A DNA stretch of 64,000 nt, from NCBI RefSeq assembly GCF_036507355.1, contig NZ_AP027877.1; one strand, given 5' to 3'. This DNA comes from Escherichia coli (GTDB taxonomy: Bacteria > Pseudomonadota > Gammaproteobacteria > Enterobacterales > Enterobacteriaceae). The translations under genes were made by a program, and so were the position numbers. Shown piece after piece: positions 2,458 through 34,011 of the stretch. The notes under the pieces were generated by a model. It did not search any database. It saw only the letters and a list, made by a program, of their open reading frames with translations, and was not told the origin of the DNA. Position 1 is the stretch's first letter, and each line of letters starts with the position of its first letter.

Positions 2458-3096
2458 TCAAGATTTAATAACATTTACTACAGATTTGAAAATATCGGTT
2501 TTGCGTGATTCATCATCTACATGGATAAAGGAAACGAGTTTCCTGCCTGCTTTAATCAGGATACCGCGTTGCGTCTTTTCCACAGACGGGGTAACGTGTG
2601 CAGATAACAGACAATGTTCATGTAAATGAAGAAACTTTTTTGAGGCGTAGCCGCCATGTAATCGGGCTTGAATGTCAAGATACATATCATCAAGAGAACC
2701 GGGTTCTCCTGATTCACTCAATACCGGATAACCCTTCTTATCAAAGAGGTTAAGGATAGATTTACTATCATGTTCGAACAGGGTAACACCGTAAATGTAT
2801 TTCATTCGAAAGGTGAGGGAATCGGTGGTGTAGACCTCCTCCTGACGATTGAAATTTTTGAGACGCCTGGCTAATTCATTAAAAACAGCACGAGCAGTAG
2901 CCGTGTCCTGCAGGGTGTAGGTATAAAGTACGAAGCCATCTGTGCCGATGAGCTTTACTAAGTTGTCCATAATCGTGATAGCGAGAACTAATGCAAAGGA
3001 TAGATATTTTTCATCGTTGTCTACAGCTGTGTTTGCTGCTTCAGGAAGAATGTTCAGTGCATTATTAGCATTATTTGCTGTGTTCTTAGTAACCAT
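2458..3096 (-). CDS. Hypothetical protein, 212 aa, between the Xis-like gene and piPolB
   Basis: ORF track; start overlaps the stop of the upstream Xis-like gene by 11 nt; same strand as piPolB; no recognisable motif. Confidence 0.55.
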   Translation of the reverse strand: MVTKNTANNANNALNILPEAANTAVDNDEKYLSFALVLAITIMDNLVKLIGTDGFVLYTYTLQDTATARAVFNELARRLKNFNRQEEVYTTDSLTFRMKYIYGVTLFEHDSKSILNLFDKKGYPVLSESGEPGSLDDMYLDIQARLHGGYASKKFLHLHEHCLLSAHVTPSVEKTQRGILIKAGRKLVSFIHVDDESRKTDIFKSVVNVIKS

Positions 3097-3286
3097 TTAT
3101 ATCACCTTTAAGTTTGTTTTGACGATGTGCATTTTCCCACTCAACAATATCATCAAGAGAGAATCGTATAGCCCGCCCAATTCTGATGAAGGGCGGGAGT
3201 TTTCCGGGGTTGCGCGATATATCTGACGCAACCGTGGATGCAGAAAGATTAAATCTTTCTGCGAACTGCTTAATGGTTAAATACAT
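3086..3286 (-). CDS. AlpA/Xis-like helix-turn-helix excisionase or regulator, 66 aa
   Basis: Small basic protein MYLTIKQFAERF...RIGRAIRFSLDDIVEW typical of AlpA/Xis-family HTH proteins; sits immediately downstream of the integrase on the same strand. Confidence 0.6.
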   Translation of the reverse strand: MYLTIKQFAERFNLSASTVASDISRNPGKLPPFIRIGRAIRFSLDDIVEWENAHRQNKLKGDINGY

Positions 3287-3436: not shown

Positions 3437-4564
3437 TCATTTTGTGTCATAACTTTCTATGACCTGAGAAACCACTGCGTGTGATGTCGCTGCATTGTGA
3501 AAAGCGTAGCGACGGGTCGCCGTGAGTGAATGGTGATTTAGCAGATGGGAAGCGATTGCAATATCCCCGGTCGCCTGTAGTACCCGGGTGGCAAAGGTAC
3601 GGCGCAGGTCATGCATCCGCAGGTTATCAATGTTGGCATCCCGACAAATACGGGCAAAGGTTGCACGCGGATATGCCAGAGGGCGGGCATTGTCGGTTAG
3701 TTGTGGAAAAATGTAAGTTTTGCTGAGCATCAGGTCCTGCTGGCACTGGACAACTGCAATGGCTGGAAGTGCAAGTGGGCAGGTGAAAGGGTGTCCGGAC
3801 TTTGTATCAGGCAGTATGAGTTGATGCATATCCGGGTGCCAGTACTCCCATTTCAGGGTACATACCTCACCAATACGCATCCCCGTATAAAGAGCAAGCA
3901 ATATAGAATCAGCTGCCGGTGTTTGCAGCGCTGTTGCTGCGTTAATAAAGCGCGGGATTTCTGTCGCTGACAGTGTGCGATAGCGAATGTTATTTTCTTT
4001 CAGATAGCGGACATGTGACATCGGGGAATGTGTGATCCATCCAGCACGTACTGCCAGAGAGCATATTTTGGACAATATTGCGAGGATACGGTTTACTGTT
4101 GACGGACGTAATTTTTCCCGTAAGCCAGCAGCATATTGTTCTAGTTCTCCTGCCGTGATGTCGCGAAGTTGCCGCTTGCCCCAGAACGGGCGAACGTAGA
4201 GGTTGAGTTTTGACAACTCTGACTGAGGACTCTTTTTATACAACTGCAAATCCGGTAGCCACAGGTCATTGATGGCCTGTTCCACAGTGAATCGACGGGA
4301 CTGAACAGCAAGGCGATTTTTATCGGCAAGCAGGTTCATCACATGCTGACGGGCATCCTCAATGCAGAGATGAGGGAATTCACCCAGTGTTTCATATATA
4401 CGTTGATTTTTGATGGTGGCGCGAAAGGCCAGCGTGATCCGTTTTGGATATACCAGTGCACGCAGGTTTTGGCACTGAATATCACGGTATTCCTGACAAC
4501 CCGTGAGGGGATGTGGAAGTTGGTGAATTGATTTGTTGCTGAAACGCAGATCCAGAATAGGCAT
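3437..4564 (-). CDS. Tyrosine recombinase / phage-type integrase, 375 aa
   Basis: C-terminal catalytic signature: TGMRIGEV (Arg), MHDLRRTFATR (HxxR), LLNHHSLTATRRYAFH (catalytic Tyr). Confidence 0.9.
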   Translation of the reverse strand: MPILDLRFSNKSIHQLPHPLTGCQEYRDIQCQNLRALVYPKRITLAFRATIKNQRIYETLGEFPHLCIEDARQHVMNLLADKNRLAVQSRRFTVEQAINDLWLPDLQLYKKSPQSELSKLNLYVRPFWGKRQLRDITAGELEQYAAGLREKLRPSTVNRILAILSKICSLAVRAGWITHSPMSHVRYLKENNIRYRTLSATEIPRFINAATALQTPAADSILLALYTGMRIGEVCTLKWEYWHPDMHQLILPDTKSGHPFTCPLALPAIAVVQCQQDLMLSKTYIFPQLTDNARPLAYPRATFARICRDANIDNLRMHDLRRTFATRVLQATGDIAIASHLLNHHSLTATRRYAFHNAATSHAVVSQVIESYDTK

Positions 4565-4663
4565 CGTATTTCTCCTGTAAATGACACTGGAAAAATACGA
4601 TGTGAGGTTATAGTCTGCCAGTTACAGCTTTCACAGTTCATCAGGTGAAAAATGCTGATTCGG

Positions 4664-4699
4664 ATATAATGGCAACACAATTCCATGTCGCCATTATAT
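4664..4699. promoter_or_regulatory. Imperfect inverted repeat (ATAATGGCAAC ... GTCGCCATTAT) between ORF 4707-5837 and the integrase start
   Basis: Read directly from the sequence; could be a terminator for the upstream ORF or an operator in the integrase leader. Confidence 0.35.
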
Positions 4700-4706
4700 T
4701 AAGAAA

Positions 4707-5837
4707 CTACAGTTTCATGATCTTGTTCGCTATTTTTTCGAAGTAAACCTCATTCTTAAGAAGAGTGATATTGTTAGTTTGAACACCCAGACCACTGGAG
4801 GTTGACTGGAAGTTGAGTGAACCACTTATCACGGTGGACTTTCCTGATAAAAATGAAATCAACTCCTTGGAAGATGGTGCCCACTCAGGGTTTAAGAGTA
4901 ATGCAATGTAGATATATGTCTTACGAAGCAATTGTTCGATATCTTTTTTATACCCCGTAGTGTTTTGCTTACCTTTAATGCAAATTGATTTGATTATGAA
5001 CTCATCAGGGCTGGTTAAAGGCGTTTTAAACTTATTCAGTGATCCATCGTTATGAATGACTTCATAAGGCAGCATAGATAAAATGATCAATGCAATCATT
5101 TTAGGATGATAAAGGTAGTTATCACGAATGATTTTTCCTGCCTTCATTGTATTGAGTGTTGTTTGAATAAATACAAAAAGATATTCAGAGCAAAAGTAAC
5201 AAAACACAAGCCAGGATAGGTCAATGGCTGGAATGTTAATATCCTTAGGTAGTTTGTTTAGCCAGTATTCAGACTTCAAAAAGGTCCTGATTTCAACAGT
5301 ATATTCATGCATTTTTGCGCTGAAATCAAGCATTGCTACTTGACCTGATTGTTCCGTAACTGTGTGGTCTATAAATGTTAGTGTATTGCACATTTTATCC
5401 AGCGTGTTTTGAAAACAAGAAAGGAGTTCGGCATTATTATTACCATTAACCGCAGATGAAAGTTCAGTTGCAATAAATGCATCCAGTAGCATACAGATTT
5501 TTTTCGGAATGACATTTTTACGGGATTGCTGTGAATAGAAATATACTGCCAGTAAATTAAAGGCAGTGCACTCCTTTTTTAACCATTGTTCGAGCACTGG
5601 GACGTGCTGAAAAAAATTGATATGCTTAGCAGTAGATGCTGATGGAGATAGTACATGAAGAATATCTACAGCAGGCTTCATTTGCAATATTTGATCGGAT
5701 TCGGTAGTCGTCATTAGTTCCAGTAATTGCTGTTCAGAAAATAGTTTAGACAGGTGATCAATGTCTTTTTGGTATTGGTTAAGTTTTTTTAAATTCCCCG
5801 GTACACGGGTTACATTGTTTTTCATTTTCTCGAACAT
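4707..5837 (-). CDS. Hypothetical protein, 376 aa, AT-rich, no recognisable domain
   Basis: Long ORF in the track; low-GC codon usage; no Walker A, HEXXH or nuclease motif seen. Confidence 0.6.
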   Translation of the reverse strand: MFEKMKNNVTRVPGNLKKLNQYQKDIDHLSKLFSEQQLLELMTTTESDQILQMKPAVDILHVLSPSASTAKHINFFQHVPVLEQWLKKECTAFNLLAVYFYSQQSRKNVIPKKICMLLDAFIATELSSAVNGNNNAELLSCFQNTLDKMCNTLTFIDHTVTEQSGQVAMLDFSAKMHEYTVEIRTFLKSEYWLNKLPKDINIPAIDLSWLVFCYFCSEYLFVFIQTTLNTMKAGKIIRDNYLYHPKMIALIILSMLPYEVIHNDGSLNKFKTPLTSPDEFIIKSICIKGKQNTTGYKKDIEQLLRKTYIYIALLLNPEWAPSSKELISFLSGKSTVISGSLNFQSTSSGLGVQTNNITLLKNEVYFEKIANKIMKL

Positions 5838-6239
5838 AATTTTATCCTCGTTTGAATTAATACACTGATTTAAAAAGTAGCATGTCGTGTTAGCGAGGTA
5901 ATCCTAAAACGTGAATGGGATCAGGGGCAAGCTTGAATCTGCGTAAGGATATGGCTTAAATTTAATGGTGTAATTAGTGGATTAGAGGCTTATAGCTATT
6001 TAAATACAATAAGTTATGACGGTGTGTGGCGGGTGTAAATCGGTTAGTTTTTATGGTTAAAATATGAGCGCTATGAGGTTTCAGAGATGGTGGTGTTTAA
6101 ATTACATAAAACCAAGGCCTGATAATCAGTATCAATACCGGAACGATGTCATATGATTAACACTGTCTATGGCATTGATAATGATCTATGCAAGGCTGAA
6201 ATTAGCTCTGCTTCACGATGATATAGTGTTCTATAAAGA

Positions 6240-7475
6240 TTAAAAGGAAATAAACAGAGCCTTTCGCCGATGAATCAATGTGCTGATTTCCCTCAAATCA
6301 GCCTCAATACTACCAACATCACCAAAGACTTCACCTCTAATCTCACTTCGATTTTTCATGAAATTGGTGCTTAATAAGCTTTCTTTTTTTAATGCCATTA
6401 ATTTTGGTTTTATATCGTTATAGAAATGCTTACGGCTTACCCTGATGCTATGAATCGAGTAGTAAACTGTTTTATACATCAAAAATATAAGTAACTGGCC
6501 GAGAAGATATTCTTTTTCAATGTATTTATATTGAGAGGATTTTTCGCGTTTCGCCAGGTAGAAAACATGAGGTGCGATGATGGTGGGGATAAAATCCAGT
6601 GCTGGAGAGGTTTTGGTTTTTTCTGTTTCTCTTCCGGATTGAAGATGTTGAAGTACAGAGTATACAATGCTTAAAATTATGGCGTTACTTATATTATTAA
6701 TTGCAGTTGGGTAAATATGCAGATTGCTTATCAATTCTGAAAGGCAAAGTAAAACACCAGTGATGTTGGGTTTTCTGCCGGAGATTGTGGTGCTGTTGAA
6801 AATGTGACGATTCTTACGACTTATATTGACAAGTTTATGAGTGCAGAACTCTATATGTTCGACGATTTTATCTTGACTATTTTTAATGTATTTTGAAATG
6901 TTAGTGATCCGGCCATTCAACGTTAGTTCATCAAGCAATATATCATTTTTAATATTGCGAATTTCATCGCAATGTTCACATTGAGAAACTATCTCATGTA
7001 ATACATAACTCGAAGTATTGCGTGACGATGCTGATATGTAATCTAAAATGGAATGCTCGACTTTGATTTTTTGTTTGTATTTTTTAATGCACTGTTTGAT
7101 TGTTTTTTGTAGAGTATTTGAGATGTGTTTTTTATATTCTTTTAGAAAATCTTGCTCTAAAAAGAGTGAGGAGAAGATCAACTGCTGGCGAGATAATTTA
7201 ATCTCAGGCTTGATCAATTTAATCCGAAAAACTCTTCCCTCCAACTCATAGCTGAACATGGAAGATAAGTCATAGTGGGGTGATAAATGTTCGAGTAACG
7301 ACATTCGTGTATTCATTAGCCGCTTGAATTTATGGTCAGCATACATAAGTGTTTTTTTTATTTGCTCATCATAAAGTGGGCCGATAGCGCAGTTGGCAAT
7401 ACTCATTCTATCCGGAGACCTCCAGTCAGCAGGGGAATCACATTGACGGTCATCATTACTATCAAAGGGCATCAA
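6240..7475 (-). CDS. Hypothetical protein, 411 aa, AT-rich, no recognisable domain; has hydrophobic segments
   Basis: Long ORF in the track; divergent from hsdM across a ~300-bp intergenic region. Confidence 0.6.
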   Translation of the reverse strand: MMPFDSNDDRQCDSPADWRSPDRMSIANCAIGPLYDEQIKKTLMYADHKFKRLMNTRMSLLEHLSPHYDLSSMFSYELEGRVFRIKLIKPEIKLSRQQLIFSSLFLEQDFLKEYKKHISNTLQKTIKQCIKKYKQKIKVEHSILDYISASSRNTSSYVLHEIVSQCEHCDEIRNIKNDILLDELTLNGRITNISKYIKNSQDKIVEHIEFCTHKLVNISRKNRHIFNSTTISGRKPNITGVLLCLSELISNLHIYPTAINNISNAIILSIVYSVLQHLQSGRETEKTKTSPALDFIPTIIAPHVFYLAKREKSSQYKYIEKEYLLGQLLIFLMYKTVYYSIHSIRVSRKHFYNDIKPKLMALKKESLLSTNFMKNRSEIRGEVFGDVGSIEADLREISTLIHRRKALFISF

Positions 7476-7778
7476 CGTTGCCGATTATGGATGATGTCAG
7501 CTTCACACACCAGTACGGGTGATATATGGATCATCATTACCCCAACGGCAGTTTTACACCATGGCTAATATGGATGCTATCTTACTAAGATAATTGGTTT
7601 TTAGCGAGTGACGAGCCAGGTTGTGTCAGTCTGTCTCATGTCGATATTACGGGGATGATGCAAACCTGAATGCTGCGATATTGGCGTGTCAGGGGAGGCA
7701 TCTTACGGTATCATTTACCGCAATTTTTAAGATGCAAAGCCCTGCATCGCTAGCTTTTTCTTCAGACCAGGATGATTC

Positions 7779-9302: not shown

Positions 9303-10566
9303 TTCGCTTTACCCAGTGAGCGTTAAAGCTGGAAAACCGATCCTTGGAATGCTACCTACAGGATGGCAAAAGTTATCATTAGAAAAGTGCTTAAATATAG
9401 AGGCAAGAAAGGCATATATACAAGATAATCAAGAGTATGACTTAGTTACAGTAAAGCGCTCCAGAGGTGGCGTAATAAGACGTGAGCATCTTAAAGGAAA
9501 AGATATCTCCGTAAAAAGTCAATTCTATATTAAAGAAGGCGACTTTCTCATATCAAAACGACAAATTGTGCACGGTGCTTGCGGTCTTGTACCTAAAGAA
9601 CTTTCTGGCTCAATTGTATCGAATGAATATTGTGTGCTTACAGGGAAGTCCGGTTTTTATCTTCCTTATATGGAATTTCTATCGGAGTCTCTATATTTCC
9701 AGCAAACCTGCTTCCACTCTAGCATTGGTGTGCACATAGAGAAAATGATTTTTAAGTTAGATAGTTGGTTTAAGTGGCCATTTAATATCCCCCCACTGTC
9801 TGAACAAAAGAGAATCGTTAAAATCCTGTCAACCTGGGATAAGGCGATTTCGGTGACGGAAAAGCTTCTCACCAACAGTCAGCAGCAGAAAAAAGCCCTG
9901 ATGCAGCAATTGCTTACCGGGAAAAAACGCTTGCTGGATGAGAGGGGGGTGAGGTTTAGTGGGGAGTGGAAGAGAGTAAAACTGGGTGCGATAGCCGATA
10001 TGAACAGTGGAGGTACTCCGAAATCAACGGTTGAAGAGTATTATGGCGGGAATATCCCATGGGTATCTATTTCTGATATGACATCTAATGGAAAGTGGAT
10101 TGCTACAACTGAAAAATATCTGACTGAATTAGGATTGAACAGTTCATCCGCAAGAATATATCCAAAAAACTCGGTTCTTTATGCTATGTATGCTTCTATA
10201 GGTGAATGCAGCATTGCTGCTGTAAATTTAACATCTTCGCAGGCAATCTTGGGTATTAGACCAAAAGATTGTTTAAATTATGAGTTTTTATATTTCTATC
10301 TTACATCATTAAAAGAAAAAATAAAACTGCAAGGCCAGCAAGGTACACAGTCCAACCTAAACGCCGGAATGGTTAAAGAGTTTGAACTAGACTTACCCAG
10401 TATAAGAGAACAACAAAAAATCGCCGCCGTCCTGTCCGTCGCCGATGCCGAAATCTCCACGCTGGAGAAAAAACTCGCCTGCCTGAGAGATGAGAAAAAA
10501 GCCCTGATGCAACAGCTACTGACTGGCAAACGTCGTGTTAAGGTCGATGAGGCGGTTGCCGAATGA
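9292..10566 (+). CDS. hsdS: Type I restriction-modification system, specificity subunit S
   Basis: 424 aa; two AT-rich target-recognition domains separated by the repeated conserved segment KKALMQQLLTGKKRL / KKALMQQLLTGKRRV; start overlaps the hsdM stop by 11 nt. Confidence 0.95.
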   Translation: MARDSLYPVSVKAGKPILGMLPTGWQKLSLEKCLNIEARKAYIQDNQEYDLVTVKRSRGGVIRREHLKGKDISVKSQFYIKEGDFLISKRQIVHGACGLVPKELSGSIVSNEYCVLTGKSGFYLPYMEFLSESLYFQQTCFHSSIGVHIEKMIFKLDSWFKWPFNIPPLSEQKRIVKILSTWDKAISVTEKLLTNSQQQKKALMQQLLTGKKRLLDERGVRFSGEWKRVKLGAIADMNSGGTPKSTVEEYYGGNIPWVSISDMTSNGKWIATTEKYLTELGLNSSSARIYPKNSVLYAMYASIGECSIAAVNLTSSQAILGIRPKDCLNYEFLYFYLTSLKEKIKLQGQQGTQSNLNAGMVKEFELDLPSIREQQKIAAVLSVADAEISTLEKKLACLRDEKKALMQQLLTGKRRVKVDEAVAE

Positions 10567-11246
10567 AACTGACGAAAAGCGGTCCACTGACTGACCGGGA
10601 AATCGACTGGCTGGAAGAAATATTAATGAAGTATGGAATGGATGATTCTGTACTCTGTTTCTCTGAGCTGGATGGATTGCTGACGGCGATTTTATCAGGT
10701 CCAAATATGGTTTCACCCAATATCTGGCTGAGTGCTATTTGGGGAGGAGGCGATTATCATCCGAAATGGTCATCTGAGAGAGAGATGGAGCGTTTTGTCA
10801 GTCTGTGTTTTCAGCATATGAACGATATCGCTGGTTGCCTTTATGACGCCCCTGAACTGTTTGAGCCGATTTTCAATGAGCGTGAGGTAAAGGGGGAAAA
10901 ATATACCATTGTGGAAGAGTGGTGTTTTGGTTATATGAAAGGAAAGTCACTGGATGACTGGTCTGGTCTTCCCGGTGAGTTACGGCCTTCTCTGGAAGTG
11001 ATCGCTCTTCATGGCGTGGAGAAGAATTTTCCTGTACTTGAGAAAATGACCAGAGAGCAGTTTGAGAAAAGTATTTCCCTTATTAAGCCTGCTGCACTGG
11101 CACTTTATCAGTACTGGTTGTCAGTGAGAATGTCAGAGGCATCATCCCGGCCTGTTCCAGTGAAGGGGGCAGAAAACATGCCCGGGCGAAATGACCCGTG
11201 TCCGTGTGGCAGCGGTAAAAAATTTAAGAAGTGCTGTCTGCATTGA
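10563..11246 (+). CDS. YecA/UPF0149-family protein with C-terminal SEC-C metal-binding motif, embedded between hsdS and hsdR
   Basis: 227 aa; C-terminal [20 protein letters not shown]; colinear with chromosomal YecA (20141-20806) along its whole length; ATGA overlap with the hsdS stop. Confidence 0.85.
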   Translation: MKLTKSGPLTDREIDWLEEILMKYGMDDSVLCFSELDGLLTAILSGPNMVSPNIWLSAIWGGGDYHPKWSSEREMERFVSLCFQHMNDIAGCLYDAPELFEPIFNEREVKGEKYTIVEEWCFGYMKGKSLDDWSGLPGELRPSLEVIALHGVEKNFPVLEKMTREQFEKSISLIKPAALALYQYWLSVRMSEASSRPVPVKGAENMPGRNDPCPCGSGKKFKKCCLH

Positions 11247-20867: not shown

Positions 20868-22079
20868 TCACCCCACTTCTGGTAACAACCCTGCCGCAAT
20901 CAAAAATTGCACGCCAATCACAGCAATACCACAGAGAAACACCACCACCAGCGCCGGACGACCACCTTTGACCCGGTAACCCGCTTGAGGATTGTGCTTT
21001 CTGCTTTGCCAGGTCAACAGCGAAGGGATAATCAATGCCAGTACCGCCAGCGCCACACCGGCGTAACCCAGCGCCATCACAAATCCTCGTGGATAAAACA
21101 GTGCAAACGCCAACGGCGGCAGAAAGGTAATTGCACCAGTTTGCAATCTTCCACCAACGGTATTTGAACGCTGAAACAAATCAGCCAGATAATCAAATAA
21201 GCCTAACGCAACGCCGAGAAATGACGTGGCGAGGGCTAAATCAGCAAATAAATGCACTGCCAGCTCAACATGCGGAGAGGCCACCATTTCGCGTAACGCC
21301 TGTAACAGCCCGTTTAATCCGGCATGATTAGCCAGCAATCCCATAAAGGTTGTTGAATCAATGCTGCCAAGCGTCGCCACCTGCCAGAAAATATATGCCA
21401 CCAGGGGGATCGCACTACCGGTTATAAACACCCAGCGTAGCTTACGAATGTTGCCATCCATATAGCTGACAATACTCGGCACGCTACCGTGAAAACCAAA
21501 CGACGTAAAAATCACCGGGATTGCAGACAGTGCCAGCCCCTGTTGCAACGGCAGGGTTAAAAGATTCACTTTGTGAATATGCGGTAGCAGCAATACCAGC
21601 ATCACCACCAGAAAAATAATTTTGGCGCTGAACAGAAAACGGTTAAATAAATCGACCAGCGATGTTCCAACACAAACCACGCCACCGGCAACAAAAGTGA
21701 ACAACAGCACGCCAGCGGTTGCCGACATTGAAATACCTGTCCAGTCGCTGATGCTGGAGGCCAACAATTCACCGGCACCGCTGATGTATGCCGCAGTCAG
21801 AGCATACATTAAGAACATCATACTGAAGCCCGTCAGCCATTGACCGTAGCGTCCCAGATAGCGTTTTGCCAGCGTGCCCAGACCGGTATCTGCCGGAACA
21901 TGCTGGTACACCTCCAGCAGTAATAGCGCCGTGTAGCACATCAACGCCCAAAGCCCAATCAACAAGATTAACGTAACGCTAAAACCAACACCGGCCGCAG
22001 CCAGCGGCATTGCCAGCATGCCTGCGCCAATTGTGGTTCCCGCCACGATAAAAACACTTCCCAGGGTTCTGTTTTTCAC
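20868..22079 (-). CDS. tyrP: Tyrosine-specific transport protein
   Basis: 403-aa polytopic membrane protein; sequence and synteny match TyrP. Confidence 0.9.
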
Positions 22080-23043: not shown

Positions 23044-23213
23044 GATAGTGCTCCACAAAGGTTATATTTGTTGCTGTGGCGTCACTATAATTTGTTATTT
23101 TATTATTTGCAAAAGGTAAAATATAAACTTCAATTATTAAAAATACGAATGGGAATAAAACGCATTACCGCTATTTCTTTAATCAGCGAAGATCCCCTCG
23201 CTGATTAAAATAT

Positions 23214-24252: not shown

Positions 24253-24330
24253 AAAACCGCTGCTTCAAAAAGATGAGGCAGCGGTTTCTCAAAAACTTCA
24301 TCGGCGCAATGCATTAGCGCCGATGTATGA

Positions 24331-33890: not shown

Positions 33891-34011
33891 AGGACAAATA
33901 AAAATTACGCGCTCGCGAGCATGTTTAATAACTCAGCGAAAAAGGCTCGATGTTTTGTTGCAATTATTTATCAGGAATAGCTTGCAACAAAACATGCCAA
34001 AAAGATGTGAA

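Follow-up and report, generated by a model that had tools for sequence, protein, structure and literature searches.

The DNA analysed here, a stretch of 64,000 nt referred to as the window, carries an Escherichia coli pipolin island at tRNA-Leu and is 100% identical to the chromosome of E. coli RM14721. The island lies beside the glyW-cysT-leuZ tRNA genes and ends ahead of the chromosomal yecA, at about 21300-21900. Starting from the integrase next to tRNA-Leu, it carries a DUF2787 gene, the gene of an 866-aa DNA polymerase, a 212-aa ORF, an HTH_17/excisionase-like gene and an IntP2-type recombinase gene, followed by ORF376, ORF411, a type I restriction-modification system and other nuclease genes. 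The features that define a pipolin are present in the annotation, namely the 866-aa polymerase (with a weak DNA_pol_B_2 match, E 0.005), tRNA-Leu, two integrases and the HTH_17 gene. This architecture agrees with that of published E. coli pipolins, which are integrated at a Leu-tRNA and encode piPolB together with XerC-like/IntP2-type and IntSXT-type recombinases, of which one adjoins an excisionase (PMC7385651, PMC11551731). These two papers make no mention of a terminator, a palindrome or an inverted repeat. A YecA-family gene (10563-11246) sits between hsdS and hsdR of the type I restriction-modification operon of the island, which itself abuts the chromosomal yecA.

The features under study lie on the minus strand. 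ORF376 (4707..5837, 376 aa) has no Pfam or NCBIfam match, and its transcription unit would be closed by the hairpin described below. It is followed by the IntP2-type tyrosine recombinase (3437..4564, 375 aa; Phage_integrase, Phage_int_M), with its ATG at 4564-4562, after which comes the HTH_17 excisionase-like gene (3086-3286). The recombinase gene or its surroundings are often disrupted in the loci examined, in agreement with a published remark on its frequent truncation. Its coding sequence is split in L007 and L012 and interrupted by an IS3-family element in L006, and an IS5-like element occupies in L004 the place where other loci have the excisionase-like gene and the 212-aa ORF.

Between ORF376 and the recombinase gene lies a palindrome, at 4664-4699, which reads ATATAATGGCAACA-CAATTCCA-TGTCGCCATTATAT. 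The repeat search delimited two 14-nt arms, ATATAATGGCAACA (4664-4677) and TGTCGCCATTATAT (4686-4699), which are complementary at 13 of 14 positions (93%) and separated by an 8-nt gap. The preliminary description had reported a near-perfect inverted repeat with the same coordinates, placed between the stop of the upstream ORF and the integrase start, and both the repeat and its location are borne out. The 11-nt arms given there, ATAATGGCAAC and GTCGCCATTAT, are present as well, with an actual spacer of 10 nt in place of the 13 nt reported.

The palindrome is beyond chance. In 200 first-order Markov sequences of the window, palindromes of the same class (14-nt arms, at most one mismatch, loop of 3 to 20 nt) are expected 0.165 times per simulated 64-kb window, and any such palindrome was present in 11.5% of the simulations. 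The window holds five distinct ones, two of which fall within the ORF376-integrase intergenic region. The three others, of equal or better quality, are found in the chromosomal part, at 23178-23209, 24254-24287 and 33950-33995, the last having 14-nt arms with full complementarity and an 18-nt loop.

The distribution of the palindrome was explored with a 48-nt query spanning it, which was found at 245 places in 244 of 5,426 complete E. coli genomes, all of them chromosomal. The query was single-copy in all but one of these 244 genomes, the remaining one having two places, and every copy examined in context was located within a pipolin. With about one chromosomal copy per genome, the palindrome therefore does not qualify as a dispersed repeat. 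REP/BIME and ERIC repeats and the ends of MITEs, all of them dispersed palindromes, were rejected on these counts and on the outcome of an Rfam search of 4300-5000, which at a permissive E-value returned no family match and only chance-level matches (E > 7).

Read as minus-strand RNA, the full inverted repeat forms a 15-bp stem, in which 4699-4685 pairs with 4678-4664 around a 6-nt loop and two of the pairs are G·U. The folding-energy calculation suggested in the preliminary description confirmed a stable hairpin on this strand, with −19.6 kcal/mol and z = −4.41, none of 200 shuffles being as stable. The fold of the plus-strand RNA is weaker (−16.3 kcal/mol) because the G·U pairs turn into A·C mismatches. 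A plus-strand (antisense) terminator was rejected given this weaker fold and a tail, UAAGAAAC, that is not U-rich. Within the minus-strand stem, a 10-bp core hairpin (AAUGGCGACA / UGUUGCCAUU, 4668..4695) is kept in all ORF376-type relatives; in the window, RNAfold places an extra U·G pair on top of it, which gives 11 bp and −13.6 kcal/mol.

Several of these properties are those of an intrinsic terminator. The stem-loop is stable, contains G+C and is located on the transcribed strand, and it lies just 3′ of a stop codon on the gene's own strand, a position that it also occupies in relatives. Indeed, the hairpin starts 7 nt past the stop codon of ORF376 (4707-4709, minus strand) and ends 99 nt ahead of the integrase ATG. 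An intrinsic terminator also has a U-tract, taken here as at least 5 U in the 8 nt directly 3′ of the stem, which the window copy lacks: the core is followed by AUAUCCGA, with 2 U in 8, and the extended stem by CCGAAUCA. The tail past the stem, UCCGAAUCAG on the minus strand (4654..4663), is not U-rich and constitutes the last stretch of an allele-specific block, and the terminator consensus scan of the window did not list the hairpin. Since it has no U-tract, the window copy falls outside the definition of an intrinsic terminator, and any termination by it is expected to be weak.

The comparison of pipolin copies revealed which gene the palindrome travels with. The hairpin is found in every examined copy that carries the 376-aa allele, from E. 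coli (L006-L013 and L019) and Citrobacter (L014 and L015) to a read-archive assembly (L026). Over the integrase gene and its leader, L003 and L004 match the window at 97.5% and 96.2% identity, yet these two pipolins have no palindrome, and neither do L005, L017 and L018, which are of the 380-aa type; no comparable hairpin occurs in the clade of the 380-aa allele. In L003 and L004, homology to the window stops at 4653 and resumes at 7519, and the block 4654-7518, comprising the palindrome, ORF376 and ORF411, is swapped as a unit for 1.25 kb that contain only a 380-aa homologue with 44% protein identity to ORF376. The junctions of this block are sharp, the flanks being 96-97% identical on the integrase side and approximately 92% identical on the hsdM side. 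No repeats were seen at the junctions, and the far one (7518/7519) has no matching repeat or palindrome.

By sequence comparison, the palindrome is the last element of the upstream ORF376 block and lies outside the conserved integrase leader. The allele-specific cargo block and this leader, whose first position is 4653, meet at 4653/4654, and the palindrome indicates where an uncharacterised pipolin gene has its 3′ end. The preliminary description had placed the repeat in the integrase leader, a label that is misleading because the conserved leader begins, as transcription runs, 11 nt past the palindrome. The 3′ end of ORF376 varies in a further way among alleles: an octanucleotide tandem repeat, (GTGAAGTC/GTGAAATC)n, occupies the extreme 3′ end of the ORF376 allele of L008 (~1926-1975), L010 (~1926-2010) and L014 (~4100-4140) and is absent from the window allele. 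The copy number is about 2 in L014, 5 in L008 and at least 9 in L010, and, with a unit of 8 bp, the repeat would change the frame in which the C-terminal tail of ORF376 is read.

The co-inheritance of the palindrome with ORF376 and its absence beside an integrase leader of approximately 97% identity argue against an operator and against a recombination site needed by the recombinase. The first of these, an operator controlling integrase expression, was one of the two functions proposed in the preliminary description and turned out to be unsupported, given the five pipolins without palindrome. It would involve a dimeric island protein, such as the HTH_17/AlpA-like protein or the recombinase, bound to the 14-8-14 dyad and controlling transcription that enters or starts at the integrase gene, with TATAAT as the −10 element. 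The dyad symmetry is good (13/14 complementary, 8-bp gap), TATAAT occurs in each arm, a −10-like hexamer is kept in relatives (TACAAT, TATTAT), and a scan found no good sigma-70 promoter elsewhere in the integrase leader. However, palindrome and integrase do not co-occur, as the palindrome is missing next to an integrase gene and leader that are 97.5% identical. The TATAAT at 4698-4693 (minus strand) has a −35 that matches at only 2 of 6 positions and no TG extension, and promoter scans of the window and of L021 list none at the palindrome. Given the lack of a −35 and its absence from the scans, a promoter reading of TATAAT is kept only as part of the operator explanation.

Further points against an operator come from the dyad itself. 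No second half-site is present anywhere in the island: a half-site search of the window with up to 3 mismatches gave 12 matches for 7.6 expected, none of them convincing beyond the two arms. Moreover, symmetry is limited to the inner 10 bp in the Phytobacter clade, where the outer arm is the U-tail, and read on the coding strand the mismatches are G·U. We consider an operator improbable.

A second DNA-level explanation takes the palindrome as a core-type site of the adjacent tyrosine recombinase, used for multimer resolution or for exchange of the cargo block, whose start lies 10 nt away. Its 14-8-14 geometry resembles that of loxP or FRT (13-8-13), it lies 10 nt inside the sharp block-replacement junction, and it adjoins a tyrosine recombinase of unsettled role in pipolins (PMC11551731). 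Such a site would need a partner, and none was found: matches with up to 2 mismatches are absent from the rest of the island part (~1-21900), the only other one lying in the chromosomal part, at 33956. All but one of the 244 E. coli genomes have a single copy, and nothing similar exists at the far junction. Loci with 96-97% identity in the recombinase gene region lack the palindrome, which travels instead with the ORF376 allele and whose arms vary in length, with 14-8-14 in the window and 10-8-10 in the Phytobacter clade. Finally, the exchange puts one homologue in the place of another without a change of position or orientation, which is what homologous recombination between alleles would produce. 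A core-type site is thus very unlikely. Still less credence is given to the palindrome as a DNA-level site in the form of either a 14-8-14 core for swapping of the cargo block by the IntP2-type recombinase or a hairpin-forming start site for piPolB. An integron attC site was likewise rejected. The attC consensus is RYYYAAC for R′′ and GTTRRRY for R′, to which the arms do not fit by eye, and the recombinase scored 23.5 bits with the integron-integrase model, for which the cut-off is 265.

Homologues of ORF376 with 69-71% protein identity were found by protein search in Phytobacter, Salmonella, Edwardsiella and the read-archive assembly ERR10907328, and their loci were obtained by contig look-ups; a scan of genome contigs with the ORF alignment gave only 5 loci. 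The gene order of these relatives is the same as in the window and the ORF DNA is 76% identical. Their intergenic region is largely unalignable with that of the window except for a box of 16 nt and the hairpin that covers the ribosome-binding site of the integrase. The alignment showed that they nevertheless keep the 10-bp core, as AAUGGCAGCA-UGCAAUAU-UGCUGCCAUU, at equal distance from the stop codon, the core being too short for detection by pairwise search. Behind the core, these relatives have UCUAU(A/C)UUUUAU, whose first 8 nt include 5-6 U (L021, L023, L024 and L025). The only relative scanned, L021, is terminator-like by the consensus scan, with 10 pairs of which 5 are G-C, a loop of 8 and a T-rich tail. 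The T-tail score is 0.85 for the window type and 2.2-2.55 for relatives with a U-tail, values from a d'Aubenton-Carafa-type formula that serve for relative comparison only. The search in other copies of the element advised in the preliminary description therefore had a divided outcome: the palindrome is kept with the 376-aa allele, and its core in relatives of approximately 70% identity, and it is absent with the 380-aa allele.

The stem was compared over nine distinct sequences. All ten core pairs are kept save two strain-specific cells, which are uncompensated mismatches in L019 (CP53, G-C to U·C) and in L015 (C. amalonaticus, A-U to U·U); the constraint on the stem is therefore not strict. 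At one core pair the window type has A-U, the type of L008, L014 and L015 has G·U and the Phytobacter clade has G-C; a second one is A-U or G·U. Covariation is thus confined to one pair and is not significant in a shuffle control, where 125 of 500 reach the observed level. The wobbles are G·U on the coding strand and A·C on the plus strand, which fits an RNA helix on the coding strand. In the E. coli/Citrobacter lineage, where the core is followed by AUAUCCGA, with 2 U in 8, the 5′ flank is now complementary to this tail, which adds four A-U pairs and brings the fold to a total of 14 to 16 bp. Hairpin stability lies between −18 and −21.5 kcal/mol in all variants but one.

These data bear on the possibility that the palindrome is a relic without current function, an ex-terminator with a decayed U-tract that persists only through young, closely related copies. 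The loss of the U-tract in the window copy, the uncompensated mismatches of the two strains and the 380-aa clade without any hairpin are in line with this explanation. So is the high similarity of the E. coli copies, 226 of 244 being at least 99% identical over the 48-nt query, and conservation inside E. coli therefore says little. Against it, the arms of the window and L008 alleles differ at only 2 of 28 positions, both of which keep pairing as G·U, whereas the loop and near flanks differ at approximately 8 of 36; and the stem grew by complementary A-U pairs instead of eroding, its stability being maintained with the one exception. A relic without function appears unlikely, though less so than either an operator or a recombination site.

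The reading that we favour, with moderate confidence, is that the palindrome is a weak or degenerate, terminator-derived 3′ stem-loop of the ORF376 mRNA, probably leaky or RNA-stabilising. Of the two functions offered in the preliminary description, a terminator of the upstream ORF is thus the better supported, and in part only: inheritance with ORF376, placement on the coding strand 7 nt past the stop and the canonical form in relatives agree with it, and the lost U-tract and the failed consensus scan of the window copy do not. The ancestor would have had a canonical Rho-independent terminator at the end of ORF376. The E. coli/Citrobacter lineage would then have lost the U-tract and gained four A-U pairs at the stem base. 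The window copy probably continues to terminate transcription or to stabilise RNA: with its weak A/U-rich tract it may stop only part of the transcription, act mainly as a barrier that shields the 3′ end of the ORF376 mRNA from exonucleases, or both. The integrase and excisionase genes would thereby be partly insulated from transcription of the cargo genes. Should the decayed terminator leak, cargo transcription could enter these two genes in E. coli pipolins and not in those of Phytobacter or Salmonella, and such read-through, if real, could affect the stability of the island. The palindrome is an ordinary feature, real, and matters little beyond annotation.

Two other features of the integrase leader are more informative on integrase regulation than the palindrome at 4664-4699. 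One is a second strong inverted repeat at 4562-4602 (minus strand), with 17-nt arms that are 88% complementary. In the RNA, the Shine-Dalgarno sequence (GGAG) and the ATG of the integrase are paired with the upstream CAUCGUAUUUUUCC. The helix is predicted in 7 of 7 diverse pipolin relatives, with 15 pairs, one-sided changes and a few broken pairs; no double compensatory change was seen among these seven. This helix resembles a translational block on the integrase and probably represents the actual regulatory element of the leader. The other is a box at 4627-4643 (minus strand), TGATGAACTGTGAAAGC, which is largely conserved in every integrase leader examined, including those of the 74%-identity clades, while its surroundings diverge. 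Invariant positions number 11 of 17, and the variants TGTTAAAAT in L005 and TGTGAAAAT in L017 resemble an extended −10 element, so that the box is a candidate integrase promoter or operator. A sigma-70-like match at 4581-4554 (minus strand; TTTACA-16-TATTCT, 9/12) covers the ribosome-binding site and first codons of the integrase. Its counterpart in L021 (3766-3793; TTCACA-16-TATACT, 10/12) has the same overlap, and the match probably just reflects the conserved leader and coding sequence.

The palindrome can be compared with several known systems. Like loxP, FRT and dif sites, it has inverted arms about an 8-bp spacer beside a tyrosine recombinase gene; unlike them, it has no partner, does not co-occur with the recombinase and has no conserved arm length. 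The sib/tI retroregulation of phage lambda, in which sib lies downstream of int and acts via RNase III, is similar in that a hairpin beside an integrase gene works at the level of RNA. It differs in that the hairpin of the window is upstream of the integrase gene and is part of the neighbouring gene. Substrates of RNase III are roughly 20 bp, whereas the window stem is shorter, at 15 bp. The likeness to Rho-independent terminators of Enterobacteria, including the type with an upstream A-tract, consists in a coding-strand stem-loop with a G+C-containing core shortly past the stop, and a stem base in which an A/U-rich 5′ flank pairs with a U/A-rich 3′ flank. In the orthologous copies of Phytobacter, Salmonella and Edwardsiella the stem is followed by the U-rich tail, and the one that was scanned passes the consensus scan. 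The window copy differs from these terminators by the missing U-tract, after the core as well as after the full stem. Mapping of E. coli 3′ ends places many mature 3′ ends at stable hairpins without U-tracts. The window copy resembles, at the level of sequence only, the protective 3′-end stem-loops of Rho-dependent or processed transcripts, being a stable hairpin without a U-tract right behind a coding sequence.
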